64,000 nt of DNA from Candidatus Eiseniibacteriota bacterium (GCA_965223205.1 CBDCWB010000021.1:377-64376); one strand, 5' to 3'; positions 34,978 to 61,832 are shown, counted from the stretch's first letter. The notes: generated by a model from the letters alone, not told the origin. Program-made: numbers and translations.

Positions 34978-35406
34978 TTACATGGCAGCAAAAATCGAGT
35001 TGGGATCCCCGATCTTGCGCAGCGCGATTCGTTCACACAACGCGACCAAGTGGCATCCATAGGAAGGGACTATCTCCACCAACCTGAAATCCTCCCGCAC
35101 CACTCGATCGACGACGCCATCTATCACCCGATTGGCAGGACGATCGTAAAGATCCGCAACATACTCACGGGGAATTTGAATTCCAACACGAATCGTCAAA
35201 TCCAGAATCAGATTTCCGGCCCGAAAGTCGCTCGCAAGTAGACGTTCCACCCCTTCGAGAGCAATCCTGTAGACATCTCCTGCTCCATCCGATAAGAAAA
35301 GCAAAACACCCTGGTCTCGCCATACGTGAATCCCAAGCACGCTCCCATCGTGGAAATTCGGGGTGTTCACGAGGCCAGCGTCGAAACCGAAGTGTGAACC
35401 AATCAT
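34978..35406 (-). CDS. Putative immunity protein (FHD motif, Imm50-like)
   Basis: ATGA overlap with the toxin stop; NFHDGSVLGIHV. Confidence 0.65.
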   Translation of the reverse strand: MIGSHFGFDAGLVNTPNFHDGSVLGIHVWRDQGVLLFLSDGAGDVYRIALEGVERLLASDFRAGNLILDLTIRVGIQIPREYVADLYDRPANRVIDGVVDRVVREDFRLVEIVPSYGCHLVALCERIALRKIGDPNSIFAAM

Positions 35407-35876
35407 TGAGGATCCCCCGGCTTAAGAGGTCGCCATGGGCCCCTGTCCTTGTTGGTTGGAGGAGTTCCATCCTCTGGACGCCCCCAATCATGCGCGTGGC
35501 CATCAGGAATGCCGTGGTGCGGAGGATCGACATCAACCTCTGGAAAGCCGTCATCGCCATATCGCCGCTGACCGGGCTTTCCATCGGGTCGGGTCGCACT
35601 CGATGTTGATCCCGGCTCTCCCCGAAGAGGGTTCGACTTGCTTCCCCCCTTTGCTGCAAGGAGGGAGCCGGACGCGAGTTGGTCGTACGTCGGCTCGCAT
35701 CCCAGGTGCAGTTCGAGGGTTAGCGAGCGCTCGACCCCGACGCTGGCCTGGTCGGCGAGGTCGAAAGCCCAGACGCGAGTTTCGGCACCCACGGCCGTGC
35801 TCGCCGACGCGATCCCCGGGACGAGCAGGCTCGCCAGGAGGCAGAGGATCGCGAGGAGGGGCCAGCGGCTTCGCAT
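35403..35876 (-). CDS. Mini-carrier polymorphic toxin 1 (signal peptide, conserved leader, His/Asp-rich toxin)
   Basis: MRSRWPLLAILCLLASLLVPGIASA-ST...SGSLLAAKGG, then QRRYGDDGFPEVDVD..HHG...HAHDW. Confidence 0.75.
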   Translation of the reverse strand: MRSRWPLLAILCLLASLLVPGIASASTAVGAETRVWAFDLADQASVGVERSLTLELHLGCEPTYDQLASGSLLAAKGGSKSNPLRGEPGSTSSATRPDGKPGQRRYGDDGFPEVDVDPPHHGIPDGHAHDWGRPEDGTPPTNKDRGPWRPLKPGDPQ

Positions 35877-36111
35877 GGCCCCAGTCTCTCTCATCGACGC
35901 GCCGGCGCCAAGCTCGTGGCTCCCCGGAGGGTGGTGGCCCGCGGTCTCCGTGCTCGCGCTGCGGCCGCCTGCGGTGGCCTCCGCTTGCTGCGCGCGGAGC
36001 TACCGGTCACCACGCACGGCACGAGGACGGCTAAGCCCGGCTTGCGTCACCGCTGATCGCCGCGCCATGAGCCGACAGGACGGCACGCGGGAAGCAGGGT
36101 GGCCCGATCAA

Positions 36112-36399
36112 TCAGTAGACGGCCTTCTCCCCGATGTTCCGGAGAATGGCCGAGAGCCACACGAGCGCGTATCCGATCGGTGGACTCTCCTCCTTCAGAA
36201 TGTCGCTCAGCTCATCCCAATCGTCGCTCAGCTGGCCCATCGTTAACGCCTTCGGATCCTTGTAGGGATCGTAGACCTCATCCTTCTCAATCGACCAGTA
36301 GTAGTCCTCCGAGATCTCGAAGTCGCTCCGCCCCGTCTCCTCAAGATACGTGAAGAGTCGGTCCGCAATGGCCCTCAGCTCTGCGACCTTCACGTTCAC
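36112..36399 (-). CDS. Putative immunity protein
   Basis: Start overlaps the toxin stop; acidic; EDYYWSI...GQLSDDWDEL. Confidence 0.7.
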   Translation of the reverse strand: MNVKVAELRAIADRLFTYLEETGRSDFEISEDYYWSIEKDEVYDPYKDPKALTMGQLSDDWDELSDILKEESPPIGYALVWLSAILRNIGEKAVY

Positions 36400-36845
36400 T
36401 ATCCGCCTCCACCCTGGTTGATCTGATTGCGGAAGTTCCCGATCTGTCTCTCCAGCTTCTGAATGCGGCTCTCAATGATCTTCTGCCTACGTTCTGGACT
36501 CGCGCCCTTGAGAAACCCCTTGTTGTCAAACTTGTCTGGGTTGGCCTTGTAGTCCTCTAGCTTCTTCAAATGCTTGTCGAGCTGCTTCTGAAGCCCCTTC
36601 GTCGCCTTCGCTCCCCCCTTTGCGGCAAGGGGGGAGCCGGACGCAAAGTTGTACTCCTCAAGCTCGTAGCTCGGGTGCAGTTCGAGGGTTAGAGCGTGCT
36701 GACCCGCGACGTGGACATGGTCCTGGAGCCCGAAAGCCCAGACGCGGTTTTCGCCGCTACTGACCGCACTCGCCGACGCAATCCCCAGCACGAGTAAGCT
36801 CGCCAGGGCGCACAGGATTGAGAGAAGGGGCCCGCGGCTTGGCAT
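36399..36845 (-). CDS. Mini-carrier polymorphic toxin 2 (basic all-helical toxin)
   Basis: MPSRGPLLSILCALASLLVLGIASA...SGSPLAAKGG, then HLKKLEDYKANPDKFDNKGFL...RIQKLERQI. Confidence 0.75.
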   Translation of the reverse strand: MPSRGPLLSILCALASLLVLGIASASAVSSGENRVWAFGLQDHVHVAGQHALTLELHPSYELEEYNFASGSPLAAKGGAKATKGLQKQLDKHLKKLEDYKANPDKFDNKGFLKGASPERRQKIIESRIQKLERQIGNFRNQINQGGGG

Positions 36846-36849
36846 GCTC

Positions 36850-37194
36850 TTATTCATCGACCGGAACGCGCCTGGTGACGAGCGTCTCACACTTCAAAGA
36901 AAGCACTCCGTTCTCAAGATCCTCGAGACCAAACCGAACTCGGTCGTGCTGAAGATCACTGACATCTCTGGCGCGCAAGCACAGTAGCTGCGAGATCCCA
37001 CCTCCTAGCGACTGCACGTTCCACTCGGAGACCCCGCCGGCCTCGGCTAGTATTCGAGCTGCGGGAAATCGATCGTCATCGACCAACTCGAGGACGAGCG
37101 AACACCGCCCCGTCGGTAGTTCCGTCGTGAACTCAATTCGCCTGACGATCGTCGCGATGGCAAGGTCTGCGTTGATTGAAGTGGATGTGCTCAT
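36850..37194 (-). CDS. Putative immunity protein (beta-rich)
   Basis: ATGA overlap with the toxin stop at 37191. Confidence 0.65.
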   Translation of the reverse strand: MSTSTSINADLAIATIVRRIEFTTELPTGRCSLVLELVDDDRFPAARILAEAGGVSEWNVQSLGGGISQLLCLRARDVSDLQHDRVRFGLEDLENGVLSLKCETLVTRRVPVDE

Positions 37195-38530
37195 TGCCCA
37201 CCCCCGGTACCCGGCCCGGCCCCTGGATGATAGGTTTCCTTGCCCTTGGGTCCGTAGCCAGGGCCAAACTCCCTTGTGTGGTGGTGAGGGTTCGTGTGGG
37301 TCGATGGGTCTGGCAGGTCGGTGAAGTCCGTTCTCTCCACCTGTCGTCCGTAGTCGTCGTACTGCGCCCGCCACGGCTGAACCTGTCCTACATCGTCCAC
37401 GTACTGGCCGTCAAGCTGTCGTACTCCTGGAGTCACTTGATCAGGTGCCTTCGCGCCGAGCCCACGTCCCCCCCTTGCTACATCAGCACCTTCGTGCGTA
37501 TCCCCCTCCGGGGTTGCAGCGTCACCATCGCTCTCCAGCAAGCTTAGCCCAGATCCACGGGTAAGATCATTGATCAGCTCCCCAGCTTGCGGTAACACGA
37601 TCGCCGTCGCGAGCGCAGCGGCGCCGGCAAGAACGACCGGGTGAAGGGTGGCCAGGAAGAGGACCAAGCAGCGGCGCAGCAAGGGCGAGGGACTCGCCCG
37701 TTGGGTCACTCCAATCGAGAGGGTTGTTGCGAGCGTACGCGTACGGATGAAGTTGCAGCGGATCCGCGAGCAGCTTCTCCTCCGGTGCCATCAGTAGGAT
37801 AGGATCCAAGCCACCAAAGCGTCCGTACCTGGCGATGTTGAAACGAGCGCCTTGACGCGTGAACCCGCCAAGCTCCTGCTCGCCCTTGTGATGCCGAAAC
37901 GGCTGATCGTACCCACTCGACTCGAATCGGCGCGGCTCCCCGAACGGAAAGTAGTCAATCCGCTGCATCACGCTGCCGTCAGCATTGGTTACCGCACGGA
38001 CGCTCCCCTGCTCATCGACGTGACAATGTTGGATTAAGCCCCCATCGTCCACCGTGCCGAACAACCGACCATACGCGTACAGATACCGCTGCTTCTCAGT
38101 ACCGTCGTTTTCGAAGAGACCAAGGAGCTTCCCACCCCGGCGCAGCGCGATCGTTGCATCGATCACATCATCCACGGCGCTGTTCGTTCGCAGCTCCAAG
38201 CACGGTTCGCCCTCACCGTCCAGAAAGCTCTCTTTCGCAATCAAGTTGTCGCTCGTGGCCAGCGACTGACGCACCACGCGATTGTCATGCGAGTACCAGA
38301 AGTAGTGTGACCGGATGCCACGCGATCCTACATGCTCGTTGATCGCGATCACATTGCCGTTGCCGTCGTGAGCAAACCCGACCGAAGCCTCCGACGCCAA
38401 GTGATCCACCTTCGTCAACCGACTCGTCCCGGCCTCATGCAGGTAGCTGAAGTGATTCCCGTAGGGGCGCTCCACGCCGATACGAGTTCCCGTGTCATCG
38501 TACTCGAACGTCATGCTCGCGTCTGCATCA
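37191..38530 (-). pseudogene. Orphan Rhs core plus toxin (Ntox24-like), frameshift near 37650
   Basis: NNPLDWSDPTGE; CT QYDDYGRQVERTDF...HTNPHHH. Confidence 0.8.
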
Positions 38531-38641
38531 AATCCAGAGGATTGTTGCGCGCATACGCGTAAGGATGGAGCCGCAGCGGATCCGCGAGCAGTTTCTTCTC
38601 CGGACTGCAACGAGATCACATCCTGGGACTGCAACGCAACA

Positions 38642-38932
38642 TCAGTCCCGCTCCTGAGGCAGATCATCCCCCAGATCCCAGCCGAACTCGTCTCTGAAGT
38701 CGACAAAGCACTCGGCACAGACCCAATGATAGCCGTCTTCGGTCGAGTACCCGCTCTTGCGATCGCCCTCCTGGCATGAGAACTTTGCTCCGCAGAACTC
38801 GCAGTGATCGTGTTCCCATCCTGGCCGATACGGACGATAGGCTCGTGAAACCAGCTTGACGCCGCTCAGATACCGTTCCTGCCCTTGGCGGCGCCAGTCA
38901 TCCGGTGCCGGCCTCTTCACCTGGCCAGTCAC
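38642..38932 (-). CDS. Putative zinc-binding immunity protein
   Basis: GTGA overlap with the Rhs stop; WEHDHCEFC...WVCAECF. Confidence 0.7.
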   Translation of the reverse strand: MTGQVKRPAPDDWRRQGQERYLSGVKLVSRAYRPYRPGWEHDHCEFCGAKFSCQEGDRKSGYSTEDGYHWVCAECFVDFRDEFGWDLGDDLPQERD

Positions 38933-41900
38933 TTCGGCACCTGACTTCCGTCCGGGAAGATGCGGAACCAATTGCCCGACGGGTCTCGATAGTCCCAGTG
39001 TGGCCCAATCGAGCCTGGGTGATCCAGGTCGGGGCGCAGCGACTCGCCAGTCTTCGGATTGTACCAGTTGCCCTCCTTCGATCCTGGTGTCGACCCCGGC
39101 TTTCCGCGCCATTCGAATCCCTTGGGTGCCTCGGCCGAATTCGTCCCGGGGAACGTCTTCCCTCCTTCCTTTGCTGCATCAGCACCCTTGTGCGCATCCC
39201 CCTCCGGCGTCGCATCACCGCCGCTCTCCAGCAAGCTTAGCATCAAATCACTGATCAACTCCCTAGCTTGAGGCGACACCGTTGCTGCCGCGAGCACGGC
39301 ACCTCCCAACACCGCGGCGGCCGTAAGACCAGCTGGGTTGGCCAGGAAGGGACCAAGCAATGGCGCAACAGCGGCGGCGGGGAACTCCCCGGTCGGATCC
39401 ATCCAATCCAAAGGATTGTTGCGCGCGTAAGCGTACGGATGAAGCCGGAGCGGATCCGCAAGCAGTTTCTTCTCCGGCGCCTCCAGCAGGATCGGATCCA
39501 ATGCTCCAAAGCGCCCGTACCTGGCCATGTTGAAACGAGCACCTTGGCGGGTGAAGCCACCAAGCTCCTGCTCGCCCTTATGGTGACGAAACGGTTGATC
39601 GTAACGGTTGGACTCCAGTCGCCTAGGCTCACCAAACGGGAAGTAGTCAATCCGCTGCATCAGGCTGCCGTCTGCATTGGTTACCGCGCGGACGCTTCCC
39701 TCTCCATCGACGTGGCAGTGCTGGATCAAGCCCCCATCGTCAACCGTGCCGAACAACCGACCATCCGCGTACAGATACCGCTGCTTCTCAGTACCGTCGC
39801 CCTCGAAGAGACCGAGGAGCTTCCCGCCTCGGCGCAGCGCGATCGTTGCATCGACCACATCATCCACGGCGCTGTTCGTTCGCAGCTCCAAGCACGGCTC
39901 GCCCTCACCGTCCAGAAAGCTCTCTTTCGCAATCAAGTTGTCGCTCGTGGCCAGCGACTGACGCACCACGCGGTTGTCGTGCGAGTACCAGAAATAGTGC
40001 GACCGGATGCCACGCGACCCAACGTGCTCGTTGATCGCGATCACGTTGCCGTTGCCATCGTGAGCAAACTCGACCGAAGCCTCCGACGCCAAGTGATCCA
40101 CCTTCGTCAACCGACTCGTCCCGGCCTCATGCAGGTAGCTGAAGTGATTCCCGTAGGGGCGCTCCACGCCGGTACGAGTTCCCGTGTCATCGTACTCGAA
40201 CGCCATGCTGGCGTCTGCATCGAACACCACGCTCTTCAGACGACCCAGTGCGTCCGGGAAATATGTGGTGGTGGCGAGGTTGTCGGTCGTCCGCTGGTGC
40301 ATCGACGCATTCGGATAGTAGGAGAAGCTCTCTGAGAATACCGCGGCGCCGTCGCTGTCAACCTGATGGGTCGCCACCCGACCCCGATCCGTATAGGTGA
40401 GCGTCGTCTGTGGATTGCCAAGGCCCCCTTGATCCGCGAAAAGGAGTTCTTTCAGGCGATCGTCATCGAAGTAGTCAAGCTCGAGAATCTGGTCGAGGTC
40501 CAGTCCTTCTTGGCGAAACACCTTGGAAGCGCGGCCTCGATCGTCGTAGCGGTATTCAAGCGCCAAGCTGCTGCCCGGGTACTCAAGCTCAATCGTCTCG
40601 TCAAGCCAATCTTGCTCAACGTCTACGTCTTGCACGAGATAGTTCGATCCCGCGCCGACACCCTTCCACGTCGCGGTCTTCTCGAAAGTCACGTGCCCGG
40701 ACGTGTCGTACCAAAAGTCCCTAATGAAGTGCGGGCTTCCCGCCCCGCGGGCCTTGCGACTAACCTGAGCAAGGCGACCCTCCGTGTTCGTGCCAACGCC
40801 CGTGTCATAACTGTACGACACGATCGGATCATGATTCAGGGGCGCCTCCGGGTAGCTTGCATCCTCCGGCTGCAGCTGGGCTTGTGTCACACCCGACAAC
40901 ACGCCCCGCTCAACCTCCCGGCCCTGCTCATCGTACTTGTAGTACGTCCACTCGTTCACCGCGGCACTTTGCCGTCTATCCTGGGAGAATCTGAGCTTCC
41001 CCGACAAGTCATAGACGTAGACGATGTCCCATCCAGACCCCAGGCTTGATTGCGTTTGATAGATGACCGATGTCGTTGCCCCATTGGCAGCGCACGAGAC
41101 CGTCGTCAAGACCTCGTGCGCAACCCCGGGCGTCGTCCGCACCATCCCGCCGTGCGAACCTTTGTGATTGAGTCGAACGAGCTCCGCGCCCCCAATTTCG
41201 CGAATGACAAATGTCGGGGTACCGCATGATCCATCCGTAAACTCGAGTGTCGCACTGTATTGTATCGCCTTCATTGATGGCGTGAAGACGGAAGCTTGCG
41301 TCCCCACTCCAGGTTCGTGGCGGATCTCGTGGTGCTCGGAATGCTTGCCTCCCAAGTCGGGAAGATCGAGGCGCAAGAGCCTACCTGCCATGTCGTACTC
41401 GTAGACCGAATCGCGGCCTTCGGCGTCTCTAATGCGAATCAGGTTTCCTCGGTCGTCGTACCTGTAGTAGGTAACCGCTTTCGATCCGTCGTCCTTCACG
41501 TATGCTACGGCGCGGAGCTGTCCAAGAGCGTCGTACTTACGTATCGCCTGATGGCCGAAAGGGTCCGTGGTTGTCTCCGCCTTGAAGTAGCTTGCTCCTT
41601 GAAGGTCACTCGACCAGGGATACGAGAAGCCGTCGCCTGATAAGGACGTGGCGAAATCGCGCGTTACATACTCGATACGCAAGTCAGGGTGTGTGGTCGC
41701 CTCCAAGCGACCGAGCTTGTCATAACGATATTGCGTTACGCGACCTTCCTCATCGGTGCTCTGCCATACCTGATCTAGGATGTTGAATTCAACTTCCTTC
41801 AACGCACCATTTCGTTCCGTCTGAAAGATGCGGTCGATTCCGTCGACGTGATGAGTTGTCTCTTGCTGCGGTTGTTCGGGTCCTACACCCGGGGTGGCGA

Positions 41901-44094
41901 GGACACTGATCTTTGTCTGGCCCGGCTCATCACCATAGAGCTGTGTCAACCGCGCGGCCAACTCCGTCTCACGCCGTACTGCCTGAATCCTCCCGATCTC
42001 ATCATAGACAAAGTCCGTCGCATACCCATCAGGCCCCGTGTGCGACAACACCTCCCAGCGACGGTCATAGCTGAAGTAGTCAAGAATTGCATCCGTGTCA
42101 CCACGCTCCATCCAATCAGGACGCAGAAAGGCGGCGTAGGGCCCCCCTAGCTCTAACGGACTCGAGTTTTCATCCACCCACTTCCGGTGCACGACACGAC
42201 CCGACGGACCGGTGACCTTCGACACCGCCCACCGCGGATTGAAGTCCGGCACCGAGTATGCATCCACGTCATAGTCATAGATCGTGCTGGCAAATAGGTG
42301 CCCTGATCCATCCGGGGTCACAGCTACGCGTCTCTCCTCCACTCGACAGCCGTTCTCAAAGTCCCCGATGTCTCGCTCCTCAAGCGACGTCTTGGGTCCG
42401 GTTCCTCCCTTGTAGGTCGCCCGCTCCTTCATTACGCGGATAAACCAAGGGGTGGACACAGCACTCGCTGGATCTGGGTTTGGGATGCCGGGAGGCGGTG
42501 GTACCTCCCAAGTAGAACTGGGACTAGCGATCACGTTATGCGGCATGTCTATCGTCTCATCACCTAGCGCGTTTCGATGCAGCGTGATGTTTCCAAACTC
42601 ATCAAACTCCCTATAGAACTCTTCGTAGGACGCGACACCACCCGACACGTAGTGCGTGACAGTTTTTTCCGTGTTCTCCAACGACCGATGTCTGTTCTCG
42701 TCGAGATCCAATGAAGCGTCGTGAACGTACTCAATCAGCTCTTGACCAGAGACTTGTTCCTCGACCAACAACGTTTCCCATAGAGCGTCCTCGTCGGGCG
42801 CATTGTCGAGAACATGCGGCATGAAATATGGCGCCTTTCGATACTCGAACCGCCTGACCACTTCATCCGGCGTCGCCGAGCTTCCCTCGGGGGAAAACGG
42901 CGGTCCCGTGGTAACCGTAGTCCTGTACACATGGTCTTTGTGGTTGATATCATGCACATGGCCGGGAACGAAGTCGTACTCATATGTGGTGGTCCTCGTC
43001 GGCAAACTCGAGGCTTCATCCAGGTACACTCTGGCGCTCCCGACAATGCTCTGCGATACAGCTGAACGCCCCGTCGTCCTGAGGAAAAACTCATCGTTCA
43101 GCTGCGTTGTGCAACCAAACGGGATATCGTCGCGGTCGACGTAGGCGTACTCAGTCCTTCCGCCGGTGGGGTACTTGATTTCCTTCAGCCTGCTCGCGCT
43201 ATAGGGTTCTCTTTGGTACGCACAGCGCGTGGGAAAACCGACCTGTCGCTCGTCAGGCTCATAGTCGAAATAGGTCGTTCGACCGACCTGATCCACTATG
43301 TACCCAACGTAGTCCAGCCCGCCCTTTGTCTCATCGCCACTAGTGGTGTTGCCACTCCAGCGCTTGATGTATACGTCCCCTAACTCGGTACAATCAGCGT
43401 GGCCTCCGTCGGGGCACCAAGAGACCGCGTCGATCCGATACCCATCACTACCCTGATCATCAAAGAACGTCAGCAACCGCCTCCAGCCAATAGCATCGTT
43501 CCCGACGAAGATATGAAGACTCCTGACTGATAGCTGTGCTGAGTTCTCCGAACCACCTGTTGGATTGTGGAACTCATACTCAACCTTCAAGGCTCTGGAG
43601 GAGGGGTGGGTACCGGTCTTGCCAAAGATCTTGTGCAATCGGAAGCAGCGTGTGAACTGAATGTCGCTGGTAGAGTACGGCGCCCACGTCGGGTTCGTCG
43701 GCCCAACCGGTGGGCGAACATCGTGCTCTTTGAACAGATAGCTGAGACCCTCGGGCGCCTTCACGACCAGATCCCGGTTGAACCGTTGGAAAGGGATGTC
43801 AACGCACGCCCGAAAGTAGTTGCGCTTGTTGGCAGCCGCCATCGCGAGCTTCTGGGAGGCCCCGTCGTTCTGATAGTATCCAAACTCCAACAACGATCCG
43901 TCGTTGCGGGCGACGTAAACGTTGCGGGTTTGATAGAGACGGTACCCGCTCGTCAGGTCATCATGACCCCGGTCGCAGATTATAATCCCTTCGGTCCGGT
44001 AGACATCGTAAGGAGGTGGTGTGTCGTTCTGGGGAGCACGCCAACCGGTCCAAAGAGCTTCTCCGAAGGCGCCAAGTGGTCTTGCCGCAATCGC
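38929..44094 (-). CDS. Large Rhs/YD-repeat toxin, apparently 5'-truncated; Ntox37-like C-terminal toxin
   Basis: Frame open from 44094 (first start codon 43893); many YD repeats; NNPLDWMDPTGE; CT FEWRG...WYNPKTGESLRPDLDHP..GPHWDY. Confidence 0.9.
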   Translation of the reverse strand, partial: AIAARPLGAFGEALWTGWRAPQNDTPPPYDVYRTEGIIICDRGHDDLTSGYRLYQTRNVYVARNDGSLLEFGYYQNDGASQKLAMAAANKRNYFRACVDIPFQRFNRDLVVKAPEGLSYLFKEHDVRPPVGPTNPTWAPYSTSDIQFTRCFRLHKIFGKTGTHPSSRALKVEYEFHNPTGGSENSAQLSVRSLHIFVGNDAIGWRRLLTFFDDQGSDGYRIDAVSWCPDGGHADCTELGDVYIKRWSGNTTSGDETKGGLDYVGYIVDQVGRTTYFDYEPDERQVGFPTRCAYQREPYSASRLKEIKYPTGGRTEYAYVDRDDIPFGCTTQLNDEFFLRTTGRSAVSQSIVGSARVYLDEASSLPTRTTTYEYDFVPGHVHDINHKDHVYRTTVTTGPPFSPEGSSATPDEVVRRFEYRKAPYFMPHVLDNAPDEDALWETLLVEEQVSGQELIEYVHDASLDLDENRHRSLENTEKTVTHYVSGGVASYEEFYREFDEFGNITLHRNALGDETIDMPHNVIASPSSTWEVPPPPGIPNPDPASAVSTPWFIRVMKERATYKGGTGPKTSLEERDIGDFENGCRVEERRVAVTPDGSGHLFASTIYDYDVDAYSVPDFNPRWAVSKVTGPSGRVVHRKWVDENSSPLELGGPYAAFLRPDWMERGDTDAILDYFSYDRRWEVLSHTGPDGYATDFVYDEIGRIQAVRRETELAARLTQLYGDEPGQTKISVLATPGVGPEQPQQETTHHVDGIDRIFQTERNGALKEVEFNILDQVWQSTDEEGRVTQYRYDKLGRLEATTHPDLRIEYVTRDFATSLSGDGFSYPWSSDLQGASYFKAETTTDPFGHQAIRKYDALGQLRAVAYVKDDGSKAVTYYRYDDRGNLIRIRDAEGRDSVYEYDMAGRLLRLDLPDLGGKHSEHHEIRHEPGVGTQASVFTPSMKAIQYSATLEFTDGSCGTPTFVIREIGGAELVRLNHKGSHGGMVRTTPGVAHEVLTTVSCAANGATTSVIYQTQSSLGSGWDIVYVYDLSGKLRFSQDRRQSAAVNEWTYYKYDEQGREVERGVLSGVTQAQLQPEDASYPEAPLNHDPIVSYSYDTGVGTNTEGRLAQVSRKARGAGSPHFIRDFWYDTSGHVTFEKTATWKGVGAGSNYLVQDVDVEQDWLDETIELEYPGSSLALEYRYDDRGRASKVFRQEGLDLDQILELDYFDDDRLKELLFADQGGLGNPQTTLTYTDRGRVATHQVDSDGAAVFSESFSYYPNASMHQRTTDNLATTTYFPDALGRLKSVVFDADASMAFEYDDTGTRTGVERPYGNHFSYLHEAGTSRLTKVDHLASEASVEFAHDGNGNVIAINEHVGSRGIRSHYFWYSHDNRVVRQSLATSDNLIAKESFLDGEGEPCLELRTNSAVDDVVDATIALRRGGKLLGLFEGDGTEKQRYLYADGRLFGTVDDGGLIQHCHVDGEGSVRAVTNADGSLMQRIDYFPFGEPRRLESNRYDQPFRHHKGEQELGGFTRQGARFNMARYGRFGALDPILLEAPEKKLLADPLRLHPYAYARNNPLDWMDPTGEFPAAAVAPLLGPFLANPAGLTAAAVLGGAVLAAATVSPQARELISDLMLSLLESGGDATPEGDAHKGADAAKEGGKTFPGTNSAEAPKGFEWRGKPGSTPGSKEGNWYNPKTGESLRPDLDHPGSIGPHWDYRDPSGNWFRIFPDGSQVPK

Positions 44095-44378
44095 TTATCG
44101 AGTTTGTCACCCGATGCGGCAATTTAGTGTTGTATGCGCGTCTTGCGAGCGCTACCGTTCGAGTGTGGCTCCGGGTTGGTGCCGCTCCCGTGTCGCCGGG
44201 AAGAAGAGAGCAGGGTCGCGATGGCCGTAGTGCCGTTTGTGTCGTCCCACATTCCGCAAAATGCGTCACCTGACGGTGATGACCGTGCGGCTGCGCTCAT
44301 CGCGTCGTCCGAATCGTTAGCGCATCCTAGTTTGGCGCCAGCCTGCCCAACGGTTACCCGCTGTTTACCTACGGACAG

Positions 44379-45606: not shown

Positions 45607-45642
45607 CTCGCTCAACGAGGCACAAGTGTCTCGTTGAGCGAG
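45607..45642. terminator. Strong hairpin between convergent genes
   Basis: CTCGCTCAACGAG-GCACAAGTGT-CTCGTTGAGCGAG inverted repeat; no U-tract. Confidence 0.45.
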
Positions 45643-46263
45643 GGCTCCTTCCTTGCCTTGCGCTTTTTTGCAGCGCGCTCCTCAGCCTCCTTGAGTCGGT
45701 AGCTGTCGCCGTCGATGTCGATGATCTCGGCAGTGTGGAGCAGGCGATCGACGAGTGTGACGACACAAGCAGCGTTGGGAAAGTTTCCCCCCCAGGCAGT
45801 GAAGGCCTTGTTGGTGGTGACGACGGTGGAGCGCTCCTGGTAGCGTCGGGTCACGACTTCGAAGAACAGGTCGGCATGGCGTGTGTCGTACGAAAGATAC
45901 CCGACTTCGTCGACGACCAGCAGGGCCGGGTTGGTGTAGCGGCGCAGCCTGCGAGTGAACGACGCTTCGGTGTGCTGCACGGCAAGGTCGTTCAACATGT
46001 CGCTGGCGGTGGTGAAACGTACGGTGTGTCCGCGCATGAGCCCCTGATAGGCAAGGTTCTTGGCGATCATCGACTTGCCGATGCCGTTGGGACCGATGAA
46101 GACGACATTGGCAGCCTCCCTGAGAAAGGCGAAGTCGAAGAGCTCTTCGATCGATGGGCGATGAATCTTCTTCGGCCAGCTCCAGTCAAAGTCGGCCATC
46201 GGCTTCATGGCGCCGATGCGGGCGTTGCGGATACGGCGGTCGAGACTTCGCCTTAGCTTAGCT

Positions 46264-47919
46264 TAGTTCGCATCCGGAAATTCGATTTGGCGCATAAGGA
46301 TGCGAAAAACAGTGAATCGGAGTCGGCATTTGTTCATACTGCCAGGTGTTAGAAACCAAAGCCTGGATAGGCTTAACGGCAGAAACGAACAAAGGAGCCG
46401 ACCCCGATGAGGACAATGATCAGGCAACAGCAGGTGTTCATGCAAGCGTTCATTGACCACGAGCATGCTCGCGAGCTCGCCGAGATGAGCGACGCCCTGG
46501 ACCGTTGTTCGGCGGCGCTGAGCCGGGTGACGAAGGACATTGCCCGAGGACGCAGTGTGAATCGAGGGCGACCTGGGATGACGGCTGAGCAGGTGGTGCG
46601 AGCGCTTGTCGTGAAACAGATGAACGACTTCAGCTATGACGAGCTGGCCTTCCACTTGTCCGATTCCACCTGTTATCGCGTATTTTGTCGGATCGGCGAT
46701 TTCGAGAAGGCGCCGAGCAAGTCGACGCTTCAGGAGAACATCAAGCGAGTGTCGGCAAGGGCGCTGGAGGCGATTCATCGAGCCCTGCTTGGTGTTGCAC
46801 AAGAAGAAGAGATCGAAAGTGGTCAGACTGTGCGCGGTGACTGCACGACGGTGGAAACGAACATCCACCCGCCGACGGACTCCTGGCTGCTTTGGGATAC
46901 GGTTCGAGTCCTGGTTCGACTGCTGAAGCGCAGTCGCAAGTTTGGAGTCGACTTCAGCAATCACCAACGGCTTGCAAAGCGTCGGTTTCGGCAGATCGGC
47001 AACATGAGAGATCGAGAGGAGCGCGCCCGGCTGTATAGGGAGCTACTGGAGGGAACGGAAAAGACGCTTGGGGACGCGCAGAACGCGATTGAAGAACTGC
47101 AGTCTTGGGACGATGGAGAAGCGCAGATCTTGGTCGCTCGATTGAAGCATCACGTCACTTTGGGTCGCCGGGTGATCGAGCAAACACGTCGGAGAGTACT
47201 GCAGGGCGAAACCGTTCCGTCAACGGAGAAGGTGGTGTCGATCTTCGAAGACCACACCGACATCCTGGCGAAGGGGAAGCCTAGGCCCGAGTACGGTCAC
47301 AAGATCTGCTTGACGACTGGCCCGGCATCGATGGTGCTGGACTGTGTGGTGTTGCGCGGCAACCCGGCAGACAAGACGCTGGCGACACAGATGATCGAGC
47401 GTCACCGCGACATCTTTGGCGCCGTCCCTGAACAAGTGGCGTTCGATGGAGGGTTCGCATCGAAAGCGAACGTCAACGAGATCAAGAGGATGGGAGTGGA
47501 TGATGTTGCTTTCAGCAAACGATGTGGACTTTCGATCAGCGAGATGGTGACAGACAGCTGGGTCTACAGGCGATTGCGGAACTTCCGCGCTGGCATCGAA
47601 GGATGCATCTCATTCTTCAAACGCTGCTTTGGCTTGAGGCGCTGTTCGTGGAAAGGTTGGCGATCGTTCGAAGCCTACGTGTGGGCTTCGATTCTGTCGG
47701 CAAACTTGCTGACATTGGCGCGGCATCGTCTGACCGCATGAGCGTAAGTTCGCGGTAACACATCTTAAGTTGAGTTGGTCAGCGATTGGTCCTGCCCTGA
47801 CAGCGCCGCAAGTGACCCGGCACGGGCACTTCGCCCTGGCTCAAGACACGGAGAGACGACCGGTAGAGCCCGTTCCGCGCCATTCGGGTGCTGAAACGGA
47901 CTTTTCCGGATGCAAACTA
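46264..47919 (+). mobile_element. ISNCY-like DDE insertion sequence, copy 1 (transposase 46407-47741)
   Basis: IRs TAGTTCGCATCCGGAAA / TTTCCGGATGCAAACTA; RGDCTTVETNIHPPTDS, FDGGF, FRAGIEGCIS. Confidence 0.88.
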
Positions 47920-47937
47920 GCTTAGCTTAGCTTAGCT

Positions 47938-49739: not shown

Positions 49740-51246
49740 TCAATCGGGGTCTTCGGCATCATCTTCCTCCTTAAAGAGTCGGTCGTAGTCGGTGAGTGAG
49801 TGCGGGCGAACGATGAGGTCTCGAAAACGCGGATCGTCGGGCACGCGCACGGGGACTGGCGGTGGTTTGCCGGCAGCGAAACGGGTTTTGATCAAGGACC
49901 TGGCGCACGGCCCCGAGATGCGGCGCGTCGCGCTCGAGAGCTTCAGCGATTGCCTGCTCGAGTTCATGAGGACCGTAGCGGTCAAGGAGCGTAAGAAGCC
50001 GTGAGGTGACGCTGCCTAGGTTGGCGCCGCGCAAGGCGAGCTGCTCGAACAATCGGCTGGAGAAGGGGGCGGCATGCGCCAGGCGATCGATGCCACGGTG
50101 CTTGCGAGCCTGTCGTTTCTGAGCGACGAGTGCTTCGAGATGACGCGGATCTTCGATCTGGCGCCCCTTGTCCCAGCAACGGTCGTGTTCGGCCACCAGC
50201 TGGTTCTGGTTGAGAATGCGCACGGTGTCGAGCGAAGCGACGACCAGAAGCGTCCGCCGTACGTGTGTATGCGGCACCGAGTAGTCGTTGCGATCGAAGC
50301 GGACGTAGGGAGACTTCGGCACCTTGACCGGTACGCGTTCGTCGCAGGGGAAGCGGTCTGGCGGTAGCTCGAGGAGCTTCGTCCGTTCCTCCTCGAACAC
50401 ATCGTGGACCGTCCGGTCACGATCCTCGGGACAACGCCGCTGGCCAGCTGTCGAGCGACACCAGTCGAGGGCCTGGCAGTTGAGATCATCGAGATCGTGG
50501 AAGGAGCGAGCAGCGAAGAAGCTCGAACGCACAAAGCGGATGGCGCGCTCGACCCGTCCCTTCTCGTTGCCGCGAGCGACGGCTACGGGGCGCGGCTCGA
50601 AGCGGTGGTGTGCAGCAAGCTCGAGAAGGGTCGGGTGGAAGCGGATCGCATCCCGCCGGCGTTCGAGCACCGCGCTCTTCAGGTTGTCGTACTTTAGCGT
50701 GCGAGGCACGCCACCGAAGAATTCGAAGGCTTCGACGTGACCGCGTAGAAAGTAGGGCATTGCGCTGCCGAGGTAGTAGCGCAGGAAGATATGGCGCGAG
50801 TAGCTCAGCACGCAGACGAAGCCGACCAGCCGTCGCTCGGCGCTGCCGATCGTGAGCGTGCCGAAATGTCCCCAGTCGACCTGCGCTTCCTCACCGGGCA
50901 GGGTGAGTAGCCTGAGAAAAGCCTCGGCCGGCCGACGTGGACGATAGCGCGCGACGACGGTGCGGAAGTGATCAGGACCACCTGCGTAGCCGCGCTCCTT
51001 CACCATCGCGTACAGCCGGCTGGCGCATAGTCGAGGATACTTCTCCAGCGTCTCAACTATGAAGGGGATGAACGGATCGGCAAGCGTCGGCCGAGAGGCC
51101 CGCTTCCCTTCCGGCAGCCCGGCCTGAGCAAGAACCCGCTTGACCGTCGAGTGATGCACGCCGAGCTGACGGGCGATCGTGCCGACCCGCCACTTCTCGG
51201 CATGATAGAGCCGGAGGATCTCGGCTTCGAGAGCGGGCGAGATCAT
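49740..51246 (-). pseudogene. istA: IS21 IstA with a frameshift near the 3' end
   Basis: Homolog of 17335-18825; the C-terminus continues in the 49740-49985 frame. Confidence 0.85.
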
Positions 51247-55199: not shown

Positions 55200-55748
55200 C
55201 TACGGAGGCTCTGCCCTTTCATACCGCGCAGACACCCCCAGGAGACGAATCCTGTCAGCATCACTCCACGAATCGTCAGCGGCGAATTCGTCAAAGTCAG
55301 AGCGTGCCTCAGGGACTCTCTTCCCCGTGGCTAGCTCCACGAAGGTTCTCGGGCCGGCCACCAAGAAGTAGTCGTCCGTCGTACACACCACGGCAAATGA
55401 GTAGTCTTCTGGAACAAGGGCGAAGTTGAAGTGTGCGCACTCCCGACTAAACAAAAGTAGGCCTACTTCTGTGACGTCAACTTCCAGAGCGTCTCTTACG
55501 TGCCGCAAGTCTTCGAGCGACACAGCTCTCAGTTTTGTTGCGCCAAAAGCAGTGGCAGCACTCGCGAGGCGCTCGGCATCCTGGTCGTCGAAGTGCTGTC
55601 CAGACTCCACGGGCACGACTAACCAACCTTGTTCCTTCAGAAAAGCTCGAGTGAACTGATGGCTACTTTCGAGGGCTTTCCCAGCCCACTCCTCCCAAGC
55701 TGCAGCCTTCGTCCCGTTCGATGCGCACCGTAAGCGTCTAGTTTCCAT
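55200..55748 (-). CDS. Putative immunity protein
   Basis: ATG overlaps the toxin end; GWLVVPVES...DYFLVAGPRTFVE. Confidence 0.65.
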   Translation of the reverse strand: METRRLRCASNGTKAAAWEEWAGKALESSHQFTRAFLKEQGWLVVPVESGQHFDDQDAERLASAATAFGATKLRAVSLEDLRHVRDALEVDVTEVGLLLFSRECAHFNFALVPEDYSFAVVCTTDDYFLVAGPRTFVELATGKRVPEARSDFDEFAADDSWSDADRIRLLGVSARYERAEPP

Positions 55749-56247
55749 ATCGAACCTTGATCGGCTTTTCCGAAGGCGGGTTGATCTGGATAGTTGGCGA
55801 CCCTTGGGTACTCCCCGGTCGGACGCTGATAGTCGAACCATCTGGGAGTGTCCCGGATCTGACTCCGCCGCCGTGATTCTTCACAGCCCCTCCGCCAACA
55901 AGGCTATCGAAGTCCTTGTTCGCCTGGTCAAGGCCTCCGCTCTTGTCGAACTGGCGCGTCTTTCCTGCCTTGCCCTTAGAGGCGCCCTTCAAGAGGTCAT
56001 CAACCGAGCCACCTGTTCTCCTTGCGGCAAGGGGGGAGCCCGACACGGAATCGTACTCCGCAAGCTCGTAGCTCGGGTGCAGTTTGAGGGGTAGAGCGCG
56101 CTGACCCGCGACGTGGGCCTGGTCGGCCAGGTCGAAAGCCCAGACGCGGTTTTGAGCACCGGTGGAGGAATCCGTCGACGGGATTCCCGGCACGAGCAAG
56201 CTCGCCAGGACGCACAGCAGCACGAGGATAGGCCGACGGCTTCCCAT
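55738..56247 (-). CDS. Mini-carrier polymorphic toxin 3 (BECR-fold RNase-like toxin)
   Basis: MGSRRPILVLLCVLASLLVPGI...SGSPLAARR; CT QFDKSGG..QA.KDFDSL...GTLPDGSTISVRPGS..GSPTIQI...IKVRY recalls the CdiA-CT NC101-type tRNase (from memory). Confidence 0.75.
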   Translation of the reverse strand: MGSRRPILVLLCVLASLLVPGIPSTDSSTGAQNRVWAFDLADQAHVAGQRALPLKLHPSYELAEYDSVSGSPLAARRTGGSVDDLLKGASKGKAGKTRQFDKSGGLDQANKDFDSLVGGGAVKNHGGGVRSGTLPDGSTISVRPGSTQGSPTIQINPPSEKPIKVRYGN

Positions 56248-56251
56248 CAGA

Positions 56252-56485: not shown

Positions 56486-56487
56486 GC

Positions 56488-58260
56488 TCAGCTTCCTCCT
56501 CCAAGCGGAACCTTCCGATCTGGTACTGGGCCTCGCGTTCGAATGTCAACGTGCGGTGGTCCGTGCGCAGGGTCGGTATGAACGTTGTACGAACGACCAG
56601 TCTTGGGGTTGTAGAAGGTGTCCGCGCCCGGACGTGAACTACGAGGTGGCCCAAACTTGTTGCCCAACGCCTCACCGGCCTCCTTGGCCGTCTTGTCACC
56701 AAAGAACTTCCCTGGAGTAGTGAGCCCTTTGCCTCCCCCCTTTGCGGCATCAGCACCTTCGTGCGTATCCCCCTCCGGGGTTGCAGCGTCACCATCGCTC
56801 TCTAGCAAGCTTAGCATCAGATCATTGATCAGCTCCCCAGCTTGCGGTAACACGATCGCCGTCGCGAGCGCAGCGGCGCCGGCAAGAACGACCGGGTTGG
56901 CCAGGAGAGGACCAAGCAGCGGCGCAGCAAGGGCGAGGGACTCGCCCGTTGGGTCACTCCAATCGAGAGGATTGTTGCGCGCGTAAGCGTAAGGATGAAG
57001 CCGGAGAGGATCCGCAAGCAGTTTCCTCTCCGGCGCCCTCCGCAGGATCGGATCCAAAGCACCAAAGCGCCCGTACCTAGCAATGTTGAAACGAGCACCC
57101 TGGCGGGTGAACCCGCCAAGCTCCCGCTCGCCCTTGTGATGCCGAAACGGCTGATCGTGCCCACTCGACTCGAGTCGGCGCGGCTCCCCGAACGGAAAGT
57201 AGTCAATCCGCTGCATCACGCTGCCGTCAGCATTGGTTACCGCACGGACGCTCCCCTGCTCATCGACGTGACAATGTTGGATTAAGCCCCCATCGTCCAC
57301 CGTGCCGAACAACCTCCCATCCGCGTACAAATACCGCTGCTTCCCGGTACCGTCATTTTCGAAGAGACCGAGGAGCTTCCCGCCCCGACGCAGCGCGATC
57401 GTTGCATCAGCCACGTCATCCACTGCGGTGTTCGTCCGCAGCTCGAGGCACGGTTCGCCATCCCCGTCCAAAAAGCTCTTCTTCGATATCAAATTGTCGC
57501 TCGTGGCCAGCGACTGACGCACCACGCGATTGTCATGCGAGTACCAGAAGTAGTGTGACCGGATGCCACGAGACCCAACGTGCTCGTTGATCGCGATCAC
57601 ATTGCCGTTGCCATCGTGAGCAATCTCGACCGAAGCCTCCGACGCCAAGTGATCCACCTTCGTCGCCCGACTCGTCACGGCTTCATGCAGGTAGCTGGAG
57701 TGATTCCCGTAGGGACGCTCCACGCCGGTACGAGTTCCCGTGTCATCGTACTCGAACGTCATGCTCGCGTCTGCATCAAACACCACGCTCTTCAGACAAC
57801 CCAACCCGTCCGGGAAATATGTGGTGGTGGCGAGGTTGTCGGTCGTCCGCTGGTGCATCGACGCATGCGGTGCCGTCGCTGCCCACCTGATGGGTCGCCA
57901 CGCGACCCCGATCCGTATAGGTGAGCGTCGTTTGTGGATTGCCAAGGCCCCCTTGATCCGCGAAGAGGAGTTCTTTCAGACGATCGTCATCGAAGTAGTC
58001 AAGCTCGAGAATCTGGTCGAGATCCAGCCCTTCTTGGCGAAACACCTTGGAAGCGCGCCCGCGATCATCGTAGCGGTATTCAAGCGCCAAGCTGCTGCCC
58101 GGGTACTCAAGCTCAATCGTCTCGTCAAGCCAATCTTGCTCAACGTCTACGTCTTGCACAAGATAGTTCGATCCCGCACCCACTCCCCTCCACGTCGCGG
58201 TCTTCTCGAAAGTCACGTGCCCGGACGTATCATACCAAAAGTCCCCAATGAAGTGCGGGC
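56488..58260 (-). pseudogene. Orphan Rhs core plus toxin (YNPKTGRS / PHVD type)
   Basis: NNPLDWSDPTGE, GADAAKGG; upstream deletion/frameshift; cut at 58260 by a transposon. Confidence 0.83.
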
Positions 58261-60148: not shown

Positions 60149-60936
60149 TCGAGGCCCGATTCGGACTCAAGCACCGTCCCTTCCACAAGAGCATCTCGAC
60201 GGGTGAGCTCTACTGCTGGCCCGGCCTCGAGGAGCTCGATCGGCGGCTCGAGATGGCGAAGCGAGCACGCGGCATCATGCTGTTGACCGGTGAGCCAGGT
60301 ACCGGCAAGACCGTGTCGCTGCGCCGCTTCGTCGACACACCCAACTCCGAGCATTACCGCTCGGTCTACGTGCCGCTGGCCACCGTCACTGTGCTCGACG
60401 CCTACGCCCAGCTCAACCGTGCCCTCGGCGGTCAGGAGATCCGCTCGAAGAGTCTCTTGTTTCGTGAGATTCAGAACGGCATCGCGCAACTCACTGCCCA
60501 GGGTACCCAGCCGGTTGTCATTTTAGATGAATCCGACCTGCTCCGCTCACCGGTGTTCGACGAGCTGCGCATTCTTTTCAATTTCGAGATGGACTCGAAG
60601 GACCCCGTACTCCTCATCCTGGTCGGGCAACCCCAGCTACTCGCCAAGCTCGCGCTGCGCGTCCACCTGCCCTTCCGCCAGCGCGTCGCCATGCGCTACC
60701 GCATGCCGGCGATGGATGAGACCCACACGCGAGGTTACGTCGAGCATCACTTGAAGCTCGCCGGGCGCACTGTGCGGCTGTTCACCGACGAGGCGATGAT
60801 GCAGCTGTTCGTTCAGTCCGCCGGCGTCCCACGTGCCATCGGCAATCTCGCCCTCGCCGCCATGTTCTCGGCCGCTTCCCGAAACCTCGACCTCGTCGAA
60901 CTCGACGATGTCATCGCCGCCTCCAAGATCGCCTGA
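60145..60936 (+). CDS. ExeA-like AAA ATPase (transposition helper)
   Basis: FGLKHRPF, TGEPGTGKT, ILDE, LILVGQPQL, GVPRAI. Confidence 0.85.
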   Translation: MIEARFGLKHRPFHKSISTGELYCWPGLEELDRRLEMAKRARGIMLLTGEPGTGKTVSLRRFVDTPNSEHYRSVYVPLATVTVLDAYAQLNRALGGQEIRSKSLLFREIQNGIAQLTAQGTQPVVILDESDLLRSPVFDELRILFNFEMDSKDPVLLILVGQPQLLAKLALRVHLPFRQRVAMRYRMPAMDETHTRGYVEHHLKLAGRTVRLFTDEAMMQLFVQSAGVPRAIGNLALAAMFSAASRNLDLVELDDVIAASKIA

Positions 60937-61205
60937 TGCTGCCACAATTCGACCTAGGCGATCTCGCCGAGGCCCTCACCGAGATCGTTACCGAGGATCT
61001 CGACTACCTCTACGGCCAGCGCATGCTCAACCACCGAGCTCAGGCGCAAGGACCTGAAGGCGATGCTGCACGGGCAGCAAACAGCATTGCCTACCTCGCC
61101 TCTCGATTGCTCCCCGAGATCCTGCGCTACCAGCGCGGCCTCATCCCCTTGCGACAGCAACAATCCTGTTGCTGCAGTGACGACGATGAAGACAGCCCCT
61201 GGTAG
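60936..61205 (+). CDS. Small hypothetical protein
   Basis: TGATG coupling to the ATPase; acidic tail ending in PW. Confidence 0.5.
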   Translation: MLPQFDLGDLAEALTEIVTEDLDYLYGQRMLNHRAQAQGPEGDAARAANSIAYLASRLLPEILRYQRGLIPLRQQQSCCCSDDDEDSPW

Positions 61206-61469
61206 GGCAGTCCAACCCGCTCCTCGAACATCATGGGCCGGCAGATCGTAGAGTCTGCCGGCCCAGGTCGTTCCTACAAACTCGGAGATTCGAGTACTAC
61301 ACACTCCGCAATCAGCAACAACCAACCAAAATGCTGACTTCTGCTACTCGACACCCTACGATATGCTACGCTGTTCTGCATTGAACACCGAACGTAGAAT
61401 AATGTGGCGCGTTACACAAGGTCAGACCGGAAAACCTCGACCCATCGAATCCTCTGGGCGTACAACGCA

Positions 61470-61832
61470 CTACCCCGTTTTAGGCGGAAACGGAATGTGC
61501 GTCTCTGGACTACCACCCGGTTTCATCGTCGATGGGTCGATTGGGTGCCAACTTCCATCCTTCATCGGCTTCTCCAGTTTCCAATACCCATCGGGATACT
61601 GCTCCGTTGGCGGCAAGGAGGGAGCCGGACGCGAGATCGTCGTACGTCGGCGCGCATCCCCGGTGCAGTTCGAGGGTTAGCGAGCGTTCGACCCCGACGC
61701 AGCCCCCGTCCGCGAGGTCGAAAGCCCTGACGCGAGTTTCGGCCCCGGAGGCCTGCTCGCCGACGCGATCCCCGGGACGAGCAGGCTCGCCAGGACGCAG
61801 AGGAGCATGAGGATCGGGCCGCGGCTTCGCAT
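61470..61832 (-). pseudogene. Mini-carrier polymorphic toxin 4 (frameshifted)
   Basis: MRSRGPILMLLCVLASLLVPGIASA, ETRVRAFDLAD...SGSLLAA; toxin-like tail PTEQYPDGYWK...PIDPSTMKPGGSPETHIPFP lies in another frame. Confidence 0.7.

Follow-up and report, generated by a model that had tools for sequence, protein, structure and literature searches.

The Sec- or type II secretion system (T2SS)-dependent polymorphic toxins surveyed by Zhang et al. 2012 (PMC3482391) "might contain MAFB-N, MicroscillaN, APD1, APD2", lineage-specific N-terminal domains that follow the signal peptide, and the part of that survey considered here expects more such modules. The AbpT or S8-associated toxins of Gram-positive bacteria, which bear a BetaH domain, are Sec-exported and diffusible, and as described in the parts of the two reports considered (PMC12582261, PMC13556192) they set an example of small secreted toxins whose entry into cells needs no injection machinery, in their case after cleavage by a dedicated protease. 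The SitA toxins of myxobacteria are lipoproteins passed on by outer-membrane exchange, according to the part of the report considered (PMC5562445). A 64,000-nucleotide (nt) stretch of the genome of a Candidatus Eiseniibacteriota bacterium (contig C22, positions 377-64376, referred to as the window) contains four related genes, termed here mini-carriers (mc1 to mc4, Table 1). They probably represent an unnamed family of small polymorphic toxins, mostly of 140-200 amino acids (aa), that is modular in construction and exchanges toxin cassettes. The source genome amounts to 5.27 Mb in 39 contigs and is 99.3% complete.

The shared leader and its interchangeable tails

Translation and alignment of mc1, mc2, mc3 and mc4 reveal the common N-terminus that an earlier note on this DNA, made without database searches, had described. 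It is 75-78 aa long and encoded on the minus strand: a Sec-type signal peptide is followed by approximately 50 aa with the motifs ETRVWAFD and ASxSLLAA[K/R]GG, and this leader continues into a tail, those of mc1, mc2 and mc3 having no similarity to each other in the alignment. The cleavage site reads ASA in mc1, mc2 and mc4 (the note had counted three such copies) and PST at the same place in mc3. The gene that the note called degraded, mc4, has an intact signal peptide (start at 61832), a one-base deletion right behind the predicted cleavage site and a second frame change past the junction of leader and tail. The leader similarity is far above chance (tblastn E 1e-16 to 1e-48, at 14 places in the genome). 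Some of these matches are the same copies on contig C22 and in a near-identical array on contig C1, and about 9-10 distinct copies are present, of which the window holds 4. No Rhs, PAAR, LXG, Hint, FHA or any other family is detected by Pfam in mc1-mc3, in agreement with what the note had read from the intact proteins; Pfam likewise detects no RHS_repeat, TPS domain or FHA repeats in them, the core-end motif of the neighbouring Rhs genes (NPLDWxDPTGE) is missing from all three, and their boundary motif is AA[K/R]GG.

A word-indexed protein search with the leader returned 120 homologues of 86-275 aa; in the size range of 276-2000 aa it returned only one protein, in which leader, Rhs and EndoU are fused (715 aa). 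A wide profile search, which the note had proposed, was made with a leader-only profile of 18 sequences against 1.84 billion cluster representatives, exhaustively, and matched 279 of them with E ≤1e-3 (119 with E ≤1e-10, 43 with E ≤1e-30); their tails are hypervariable and small adjacent open reading frames (ORFs) are frequent (10 of 18 external copies). Among the matches listed, 150 of the 279, there are 146 proteins of at most 260 aa, and the others comprise leader-Rhs fusions of 539 and 715 aa, a protein of 293 aa and a repeat protein that is probably spurious to judge by its appearance. Since the proteins matched by the profile are almost all short and have the leader at the N-terminus, the leader is no fragment of a larger known toxin. 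Divergent members retain the signal peptide, ETRVWxF[D/E] and ASxSxLAA. No Pfam family lies on the leader in any of 123 members (the library includes the MafB N-terminal model), and no NCBIfam match to the leader was obtained; the two possibilities that the note had raised against its own reading, that the leader is a known carrier or an internal piece of a larger toxin, were not borne out. A sequence search of the PDB with the leader profile and the mc3-tail profile gave no match below E 0.2, and the Protein Atlas gave nothing usable for the leader and only unnamed clusters for the mc3 tail.

Within the phylum, the leader is found in one of 206 genomes, that of the source itself, and in none of the genomes of 40 relatives, save for one marginal match (E 0.0097). 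A scan of species genomes located it at 10 loci. The named hosts of some homologues are metagenome-assembled genomes of Planctomycetota, Planctomycetaceae or Phycisphaeraceae. Short leader-bearing contigs have also been binned as Acidobacteria, Blastocatellia and Gemmatimonadales, assignments that may be mis-binning of repeated DNA.

The end of the leader is complete in 119 of the 123 sequences, and grouping of the 114 tails with 40 aa or more (BLASTP E ≤1e-5) yields 57 clusters, with 12, 8, 7, 5, 5, 4, 3 and 3 members, followed by eighteen pairs and 31 singletons. Known toxin domains were identified by Pfam on 16 of the 123 members: Ntox24 (six members), Colicin_E5, LHH and DUF4258 (two members each), and TNT, Ntox33, Tox-REase-7 and Ntox37 (one member each), with one dehydrogenase chimera in addition. 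Colicin_D and further Ntox24 domains occur at external loci. The median identity of the mature leader is 0.604 within a tail cluster (165 pairs) versus 0.600 between clusters (6276 pairs); 56 of the 59 pairs of leaders that are at least 85% identical bear different types of tail, and 17 of the 38 pairs of tails that are at least 70% identical follow leaders that are less than 65% identical. Leader similarity is independent of tail type. The 75-aa leader profile is a compact, searchable tag for at least 57 tail families, mostly without a known domain, and these tagged families are a source of candidate new pairs of antibacterial toxin and immunity protein.

Signal peptides were recognized by heuristic sequence features in the 77 sequences with a complete N-terminus. 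The signal peptide is 25 aa long, of the Sec type, with a conserved A-S-A cleavage site; all 77 sequences have a basic n-region free of acidic residues and a strongly hydrophobic h-region, and 75 have small residues at positions -3 and -1. AlphaFold2, with a 123-row alignment, is confident only of residues 5-24, modelled as a helix with a predicted local distance difference test (pLDDT) score of about 90. The ratio of nonsynonymous to synonymous substitution rates (dN/dS), over 105 pairs of 15 copies from the source and other genomes, is 0.34 for the signal peptide (residues 1-25) and 0.31 for motif 1 (residues 31-40), and when only nine paralogues of the source genome are compared, the values are 0.34 (signal peptide) and 0.72 (mature part). 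The signal peptide and the first motif are under purifying selection.

Conservation of 89-98% at positions 14-25 (LASLLVPGIASA) is unusually high for a Sec signal, and Cys12 is present in 89% of sequences, as might be expected if the toxins were retained at the membrane by an uncleaved signal-anchor, or as atypical lipoproteins, and transferred by contact or membrane exchange in the manner of SitA. Tethering would explain how a small protein stays near its targets, and the genome encodes one secretin only. However, Cys12 has only 11 residues before it and is preceded by Leu in 90% of sequences, which leaves no canonical lipobox, and the c-region P-G-I-A-S-A is 85-98% conserved, as expected for signal peptidase I. 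Retention at the membrane is quite improbable by comparison with export of a cleaved toxin.

Approximately 60-110 nt of conserved DNA precedes the leader across genomes (alignment of 17 upstream regions). Several mini-carriers have, 40-100 nt ahead of the start codon, two arms that can pair, one rich in purines (GCTAAGGRRAGAAG) and one rich in pyrimidines (CTTYCYYCCTTAGC) (for example, L007:1371-1500, L009:926-1055 and L010:2006-2135), and the arms covary in matching ways between genomes. This inverted repeat could be a structure of the 5' untranslated region, could terminate the cassette before it or could be a site of recombination. The hairpin is not general, being present in about 5 of 17 copies with z-scores that are mostly insignificant and strong in one case. 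A scan for sigma-70 promoters and terminators around mc1 and mc2 yielded nothing above the expectation from shuffled sequence, and an Rfam scan of the window yielded no match.

Exchange of cassettes with the Rhs array

The leader is joined to the tail at a 15-nt junction, GCCGCAAAGGGGGGA (codons GCC, GCA, AAG, GGG and GGA, encoding AAKGG), that is common to mini-carriers and Rhs genes, and the homology between these two kinds of carrier is confined to it. The pattern GCNGCAA(A/G)GGGGGGA marks 10 junctions in mini-carriers and 10 in Rhs genes across the genome. In mini-carriers the toxin follows ...SGSLLAAKGG, and in Rhs proteins the core ends with NPLDWxDPTGE (or DSEGL), after which come a hydrophobic linker, ...GADAAKGG and the toxin. 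From the junction onward, the mc1 tail together with its putative immunity gene imm1 is 97% identical over 1011 nt to an Rhs C-terminal (Rhs-CT) cassette on contig C23, and the mini-carrier at C1:645301 and an Rhs module of the window (62437-63999) have 97.6% identity over 1174 nt, a block of homology that continues through an Imm32 gene into mc4. Toxins are replaced by recombination, with sharp breakpoints at the junction in two independent pairs; the exchange of cargo with the Rhs array that the earlier note had proposed is evident at the level of DNA.

The sharing extends beyond these two pairs. Two Rhs-CT genes in the source genome have tails with 38-39% identity to that of mc2, and the mc2 tail recurs on P0060, P0085 and P0122. 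In the regions examined, nine of ten junction-bearing Rhs tails have a mini-carrier counterpart in the source genome or a metagenome (38-97.5% identity), a count from which eight Rhs C-termini without the exact junction pattern were left out; conversely, 17 of 126 mini-carrier tails match a junction-bearing Rhs tail. Two structurally unrelated carriers feed on one pool of cassettes, and the mechanics of swapping become testable.

The codons at the junction are nearly fixed (CTT in 15 of 15 copies, GCC in 13, GCA in 14, GGG in 12 and GGA in 10) although GCA, GGG and GGA are minority choices within their codon families in the long ORFs of the genome (11%, 20% and 11%, respectively), which indicates that the junction is conserved as DNA, beyond the peptide that it encodes. 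The junction region (residues 67-78) has a dN/dS of 0.91 with a dS of only 0.20. In some Rhs genes the junction is doubled in tandem (GADAAKGADAARGG; C1:2518011-2518029 and C1:646107-646125), which could be a scar of recombination or of slippage at the G-run. Chimeras attach the leader to a short-chain dehydrogenase (P0120), to a hydrophobic linker and toxin (P0218), or to short Rhs segments followed by EndoU or another toxin (P0124, 715 aa; P0163, 539 aa), and from these it follows that the leader also recombines elsewhere than at the junction.

Full-length Rhs proteins of the genome start with a signal peptide unlike that of the mini-carriers and have an N-terminal domain of approximately 110 aa (consensus AGNNAGGTAxLSWD...PLYL...CG...GDxxYTW; L039 = C1:668000-670200, and loci L041-L056). 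Many large secreted proteins begin with this domain, in 21 of the 206 phylum genomes, a tally that counts one unpublished genome (G083) of which no other result makes use. If the leader came from the N-terminal head of such a Sec-exported Rhs protein, mini-carriers would be Rhs genes that had lost the entire shell by deletion, and no independent carrier family. A hidden Markov model of the leader, compared with the first 130 aa of the full-length Rhs proteins of the genome, aligns weakly at two places, ATARVSWASD and LALPGDC...ADSLLA, whose order agrees with that in the leader, with a score of 4.1 bits that 10 of 300 shuffles reach, or 7.3 bits for the mature part alone (1 of 300), and the rare leader-Rhs fusions P0124 and P0163 point in the same direction. 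That comparison was made post hoc with one target, however, and profile-profile alignment to 14 Rhs heads aligns only the signal peptide (probability 23.7%; 1.6% against a single Rhs head). The two fusions, with their short Rhs segments, look like secondary recombinants, and no leader-bearing Rhs protein longer than 715 aa occurs among the 150 matches listed. Descent of the leader from an Rhs head is very unlikely on this evidence, and a leader separate in origin that shares only cassettes with Rhs is preferred.

The window consists largely of a minus-strand array of Rhs C-terminal modules interrupted by insertion sequence (IS) elements, with eight Rhs core ends between approximately 23.6 and 63.8 kb. 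Compared with its two copies on C1 (2178-2184 aa), the largest Rhs gene of the window (region 38929-44100) is 5'-truncated and lacks the first ~460 aa, comprising the signal peptide and the N-terminal domain; its Ntox37 tail recurs on mini-carriers P0033 and P0021 (93-96% identity). The tail of the orphan module upstream of mc3 recurs on mini-carriers P0005 and P0077 (90-91% identity). Near-identical versions of the array are present on C22 and on C1 at ~632-672 kb (with a full-length Rhs gene at C1:663408-669938), and they differ in the carrier that fronts the Imm32 cassette. Upstream of mc2, an Rhs module (37191-38718, minus strand) is split over two frames (37567-38718 and 37191-37709) and looks like a frameshifted orphan module; a 174-aa ORF that follows it (36850-37374) overlaps the upstream region of mc2. 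Between the core end and the AAKGG junction, Rhs proteins have a conserved hydrophobic stretch of ~70 aa, of two types, and after it an acidic linker (for example, at 39100-39330 and 56700-56900 of the window); as read from the sequence, the stretch may be a membrane-entry segment.

The IS elements that cut the array include IS21-type istA/istB pairs (17269-19589, 22736-23491, 33089-34777, 45612-46208 and 49771-51246) and two identical tandem copies of an element (46263-49432) with a 444-aa DUF772/DDE_Tnp_1 transposase (46407-47741 and 48081-49415). Between IS21 copies just upstream of the Rhs array, a gene for DarT (a single-stranded DNA thymidine ADP-ribosyltransferase) and then a macro-domain gene (20865-22591, plus strand) constitute a toxin-antitoxin pair of the DarT/DarG type.

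Table 1. Mini-carriers, putative immunity genes and associated Rhs features of the window
Feature	Position	Strand	Description
mc1, mini-carrier toxin gene	35403..35876	-	157 aa: signal peptide, pre-toxin segment of ~50 aa, His/Asp/Pro-rich tail
mc1 cassette junction	35643..35657	-	15 nt; homology to Rhs cassette begins here
Conserved region upstream of mc1 start	35877..35990	-	Within constant 5' module; also present in other copies with this type of upstream DNA
imm1, putative immunity gene of mc1	34978..35406	-	142 aa; moves with mc1 tail in the 1011-nt block
mc2, mini-carrier toxin gene	36399..36845	-	148 aa; all-helical tail of ~70 aa
mc2 cassette junction	36612..36626	-	Identical 15-nt motif (motif match)
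imm2, putative immunity gene of mc2	36112..36399	-	95 aa, GTG start; role assigned from position only
mc3, mini-carrier toxin gene	55738..56247	-	169 aa; alpha+beta tail of ~93 aa
imm3, putative immunity gene of mc3	55200..55748	-	182 aa from ATG at 55748
mc4, degraded mini-carrier (pseudogene)	61470..61832	-	Leader similarity, disrupted frame
Imm32-family immunity gene	62155..62424	-	Pfam Imm32, E 9.3e-8; in cassette common to Rhs and mini-carrier
Largest Rhs gene of the window	38929..43893	-	RHS repeats, Ntox37 tail (Pfam)
Orphan Rhs C-terminal module	56488..57945	-	Directly upstream of mc3; junction at 56734-56748
Rhs C-terminal module	62437..63999	-	Runs off window; junction at 62680-62694; tail also on a mini-carrier elsewhere in the genome

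Putative immunity genes and a possible route of delivery

Each intact mini-carrier overlaps the gene downstream of it, as the earlier note had observed: mc1 and imm1 by 4 nt (ATGA), mc2 and imm2 by 1 nt (TAGTG), and mc3 and imm3 by 11 nt. The products of imm1-imm3 have no signal peptide, as read from the sequence. The Imm32 gene of the shared cassette also has a copy behind a mini-carrier (Pfam E 1.9e-8). A DUF2251 gene lies behind one mini-carrier copy of the source genome, and a DUF2283 gene lies directly downstream of an external mini-carrier (L036) whose tail has no Pfam family. These downstream genes look like immunity genes and are regarded as putative ones.

The tail of mc3 gave a model with a pLDDT of 86.5. 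Predicted as a complex with imm3 from an alignment of 9 tails, it scored 0.81 and the best of 3 controls 0.00; the score mark is reached by 58 of 80 solved complexes and by 2 of 110 mismatched pairs, counts that are rough for a custom alignment such as this one. The runs share at least 84% of their contacts, and the pLDDT of the partner is at least 86. The prediction supports binding of the mc3 tail to imm3, and the predicted interface involves tail residues 15-21 and 63-92 and imm3 residues 48-54, 102-107 and 123-126. Tails of the mc3 type (58-70% identical) are also found behind unrelated helical N-termini in four metagenomic proteins (P0220-P0223), and by sequence comparison the mc3 tail appears to be a mobile toxin domain for which Pfam has no model. 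In a Foldseek comparison with CdiA-CT (5t86), the model of this tail has a template modelling score of 0.44. The mc1 tail, compared with a profile of Ntox24-bearing members, has no significant relationship to them (probability 0.7%, E 0.081).

Each gene thus probably joins two modules. The 5' one is constant and consists of the conserved upstream DNA, the signal peptide and the two-motif segment of ~50 aa, which is predicted not to fold; the 3' one is an exchangeable cassette of toxin domain and translationally coupled, signal-less putative immunity gene. Recombination at the 15-nt junction shifts cassettes between mini-carriers and Rhs genes and among mini-carriers. A route of export and delivery can be sketched only tentatively. 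The pro-toxin would be exported by Sec and cleaved by signal peptidase I. The host is a diderm, given its 8 Omp85-family matches and one secretin, and the toxin would exit the periplasm through that secretin or in vesicles and would act on neighbouring cells in a diffusible or surface-held form while the cytoplasmic immunity protein shields kin. The 50-aa segment might serve as a handle for export or uptake, or as a pro-peptide removed near the junction. Neither VipB/TssC (PF05943) nor PAAR (PF05488) has a match in this genome, 99.3% complete (the search did not extend to Hcp and VgrG). A two-carrier toxin economy in uncultivated diderms, in which cassettes ride either on an Rhs shell or on a self-sufficient, diffusible minimal carrier whose two motifs suffice without a type VI secretion system (T6SS), contact-dependent inhibition (CDI), lysis proteins or an activating protease, is a rather doubtful extension of this scheme. 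The question posed is how a toxin of ~13-15 kDa with a 50-aa handle leaves a diderm cell and enters the cytoplasm of a competitor.

Several observations weigh against regarding the mini-carriers as working exported toxins, and delivery is the main difficulty. Many of the attached toxin families are nucleases or NADases, which must reach the cytoplasm of the target, the 50-aa segment is a small device for passing two membranes, and the hydrophobic linker of the Rhs versions is absent from the mini-carriers, as read from the sequence. The mature leader segment has no predicted fold (AlphaFold pLDDT 46-54) and a dN/dS of 0.77 as a whole, reaching 0.96 at residues 41-66; given near-neutral dN/dS and low pLDDT, much of the "carrier" may be spacer, and the coding constraint at issue in the earlier note is upheld for the signal peptide and motif 1 and is wanting in part of the 50-aa segment. 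For the tails of mc1-mc3 and the three ORFs downstream of them, Pfam at E ≤5 and NCBIfam give only noise, imm1-imm3 belonging to no Pfam family. The best PDB match of the mc3 tail model in Foldseek, to the C-terminal region of a teneurin, has E 0.055, and none has E ≤0.001. Only the 10 of 18 complete external copies mentioned above have an ORF of at least 55 aa that starts between -40 and +120 nt of the stop codon. Some copies are disrupted or shortened (mc4, C1:644208 and C1:2560907), and the copies of the source genome all lie towards the distal end of orphan Rhs-CT arrays, a position in which cassettes can be expected to be silent.

The last of these points, together with the near-neutral and unfolded leader segment, the broken copies and the pool of toxins held in common with Rhs, would also fit a silent reservoir, in which mini-carriers are undeployed orphan cassettes, the leader is a vestigial or selfish 5' flank, and only full-length Rhs proteins work. 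Exchange, however, requires just the 15-nt junction, yet the full signal peptide has been retained in all 77 complete N-termini, with the low dN/dS and high conservation given above; the frame is open from leader to tail in 279 cluster representatives, and the upstream DNA has been kept across genomes. On 21 distinct external contigs with 30 leader ORFs (78.8 kb in total, none longer than 11.7 kb), 8 have two or three mini-carriers and 3 have an Rhs-like ORF, a weak point in view of short contigs: those of the metagenome scan are at most 5.5 kb, and gene context beyond the source genome is thin. A silent reservoir is accordingly considered unlikely, and deployed small toxins are tentatively preferred; should the minimal form go undeployed, it would amount to an unusual kind of cassette store.

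Comparison with described toxin systems

Nuclease colicins and pyocins are diffusible, with domains of the colicin E5/D and HNH types, tight immunity proteins and a disordered N-terminal segment that bears binding epitopes. Colicins, at several hundred residues, contain receptor-binding and translocation domains, lack a signal peptide and depend on lysis proteins for their release. No sequence relationship of the mini-carriers to colicins or pyocins turned up, no dedicated comparison having been made.

Classical orphan modules retain part of the carrier core, which serves as the homology arm, and lack an export signal; their VENN or PxxxxDPxGL boundaries are analogous to the junction of the mini-carriers. 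Like orphan Rhs-CT and CdiA-CT modules, mini-carriers lie in arrays whose cassettes recombine with a principal gene, the boundary being conserved, but unlike the classical orphans they possess their own signal peptide and upstream region and no Rhs sequence. With SitA they have in common that they are small polymorphic toxins with an N-terminal Sec-type signal and a downstream immunity gene (putative in the mini-carriers), in a diderm host, without involvement of a T6SS; unlike SitA, they have no canonical lipobox, Leu11 (90%) standing before Cys12 (89%). In the parts of the reports on AbpT and the S8-associated toxins considered here (PMC12582261, PMC13556192), a constant N-terminal part, variable nuclease-type toxins and cognate immunity genes (putative in the mini-carriers) are features that mini-carriers share, but those toxins need a co-encoded, co-exported S8 protease, whereas the mini-carrier arrays have no adjacent S8 gene, the host is a diderm and the leader is unfolded. 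The genome has 23 S8 peptidase genes, none of them on C22 or C23, the nearest being ~26 kb and ~100 kb from the C1 arrays.

The closest resemblance is to the MafB (Neisseria), Microscilla, APD1 and APD2 toxins, which, in the portion of the survey considered (PMC3482391), likewise combine a signal peptide, a lineage-restricted module, hypervariable toxins, downstream immunity genes (putative in the mini-carriers) and spare cassettes. Unlike MafB, the mini-carriers have no MafB-N/DUF1020 domain (Pfam, 123 members) and no MafA-like partner gene in the mapped arrays; their module is unfolded and ~50 aa long, the whole proteins are ~160 aa, and cassettes are shared with Rhs through a junction in the DNA. 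Full-text searches of the literature, and PMC3482391 and 10.1101/2021.10.19.465003 in the portions considered, supplementary lists of N-terminal domains not among them, brought up no description of the leader module.

The mini-carriers have a conserved N-terminus with hypervariable C-terminal toxins, which is the mark of polymorphic toxins, and a conserved, restricted module directly after the signal peptide, which is the mark of the Sec/T2SS type, though the module is non-globular. The earlier note had announced a new class of polymorphic toxin: the family is indeed absent from Pfam and NCBIfam, but "class" overstates the case, as the kind, Sec-dependent polymorphic toxins with lineage-specific N-terminal modules, is already known from the part of the survey considered here (PMC3482391). 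Compared with that kind, what is new is a real family with a very small, unstructured constant part, whole proteins of ~160 aa, and a junction in the DNA that lets two carriers share cassettes.

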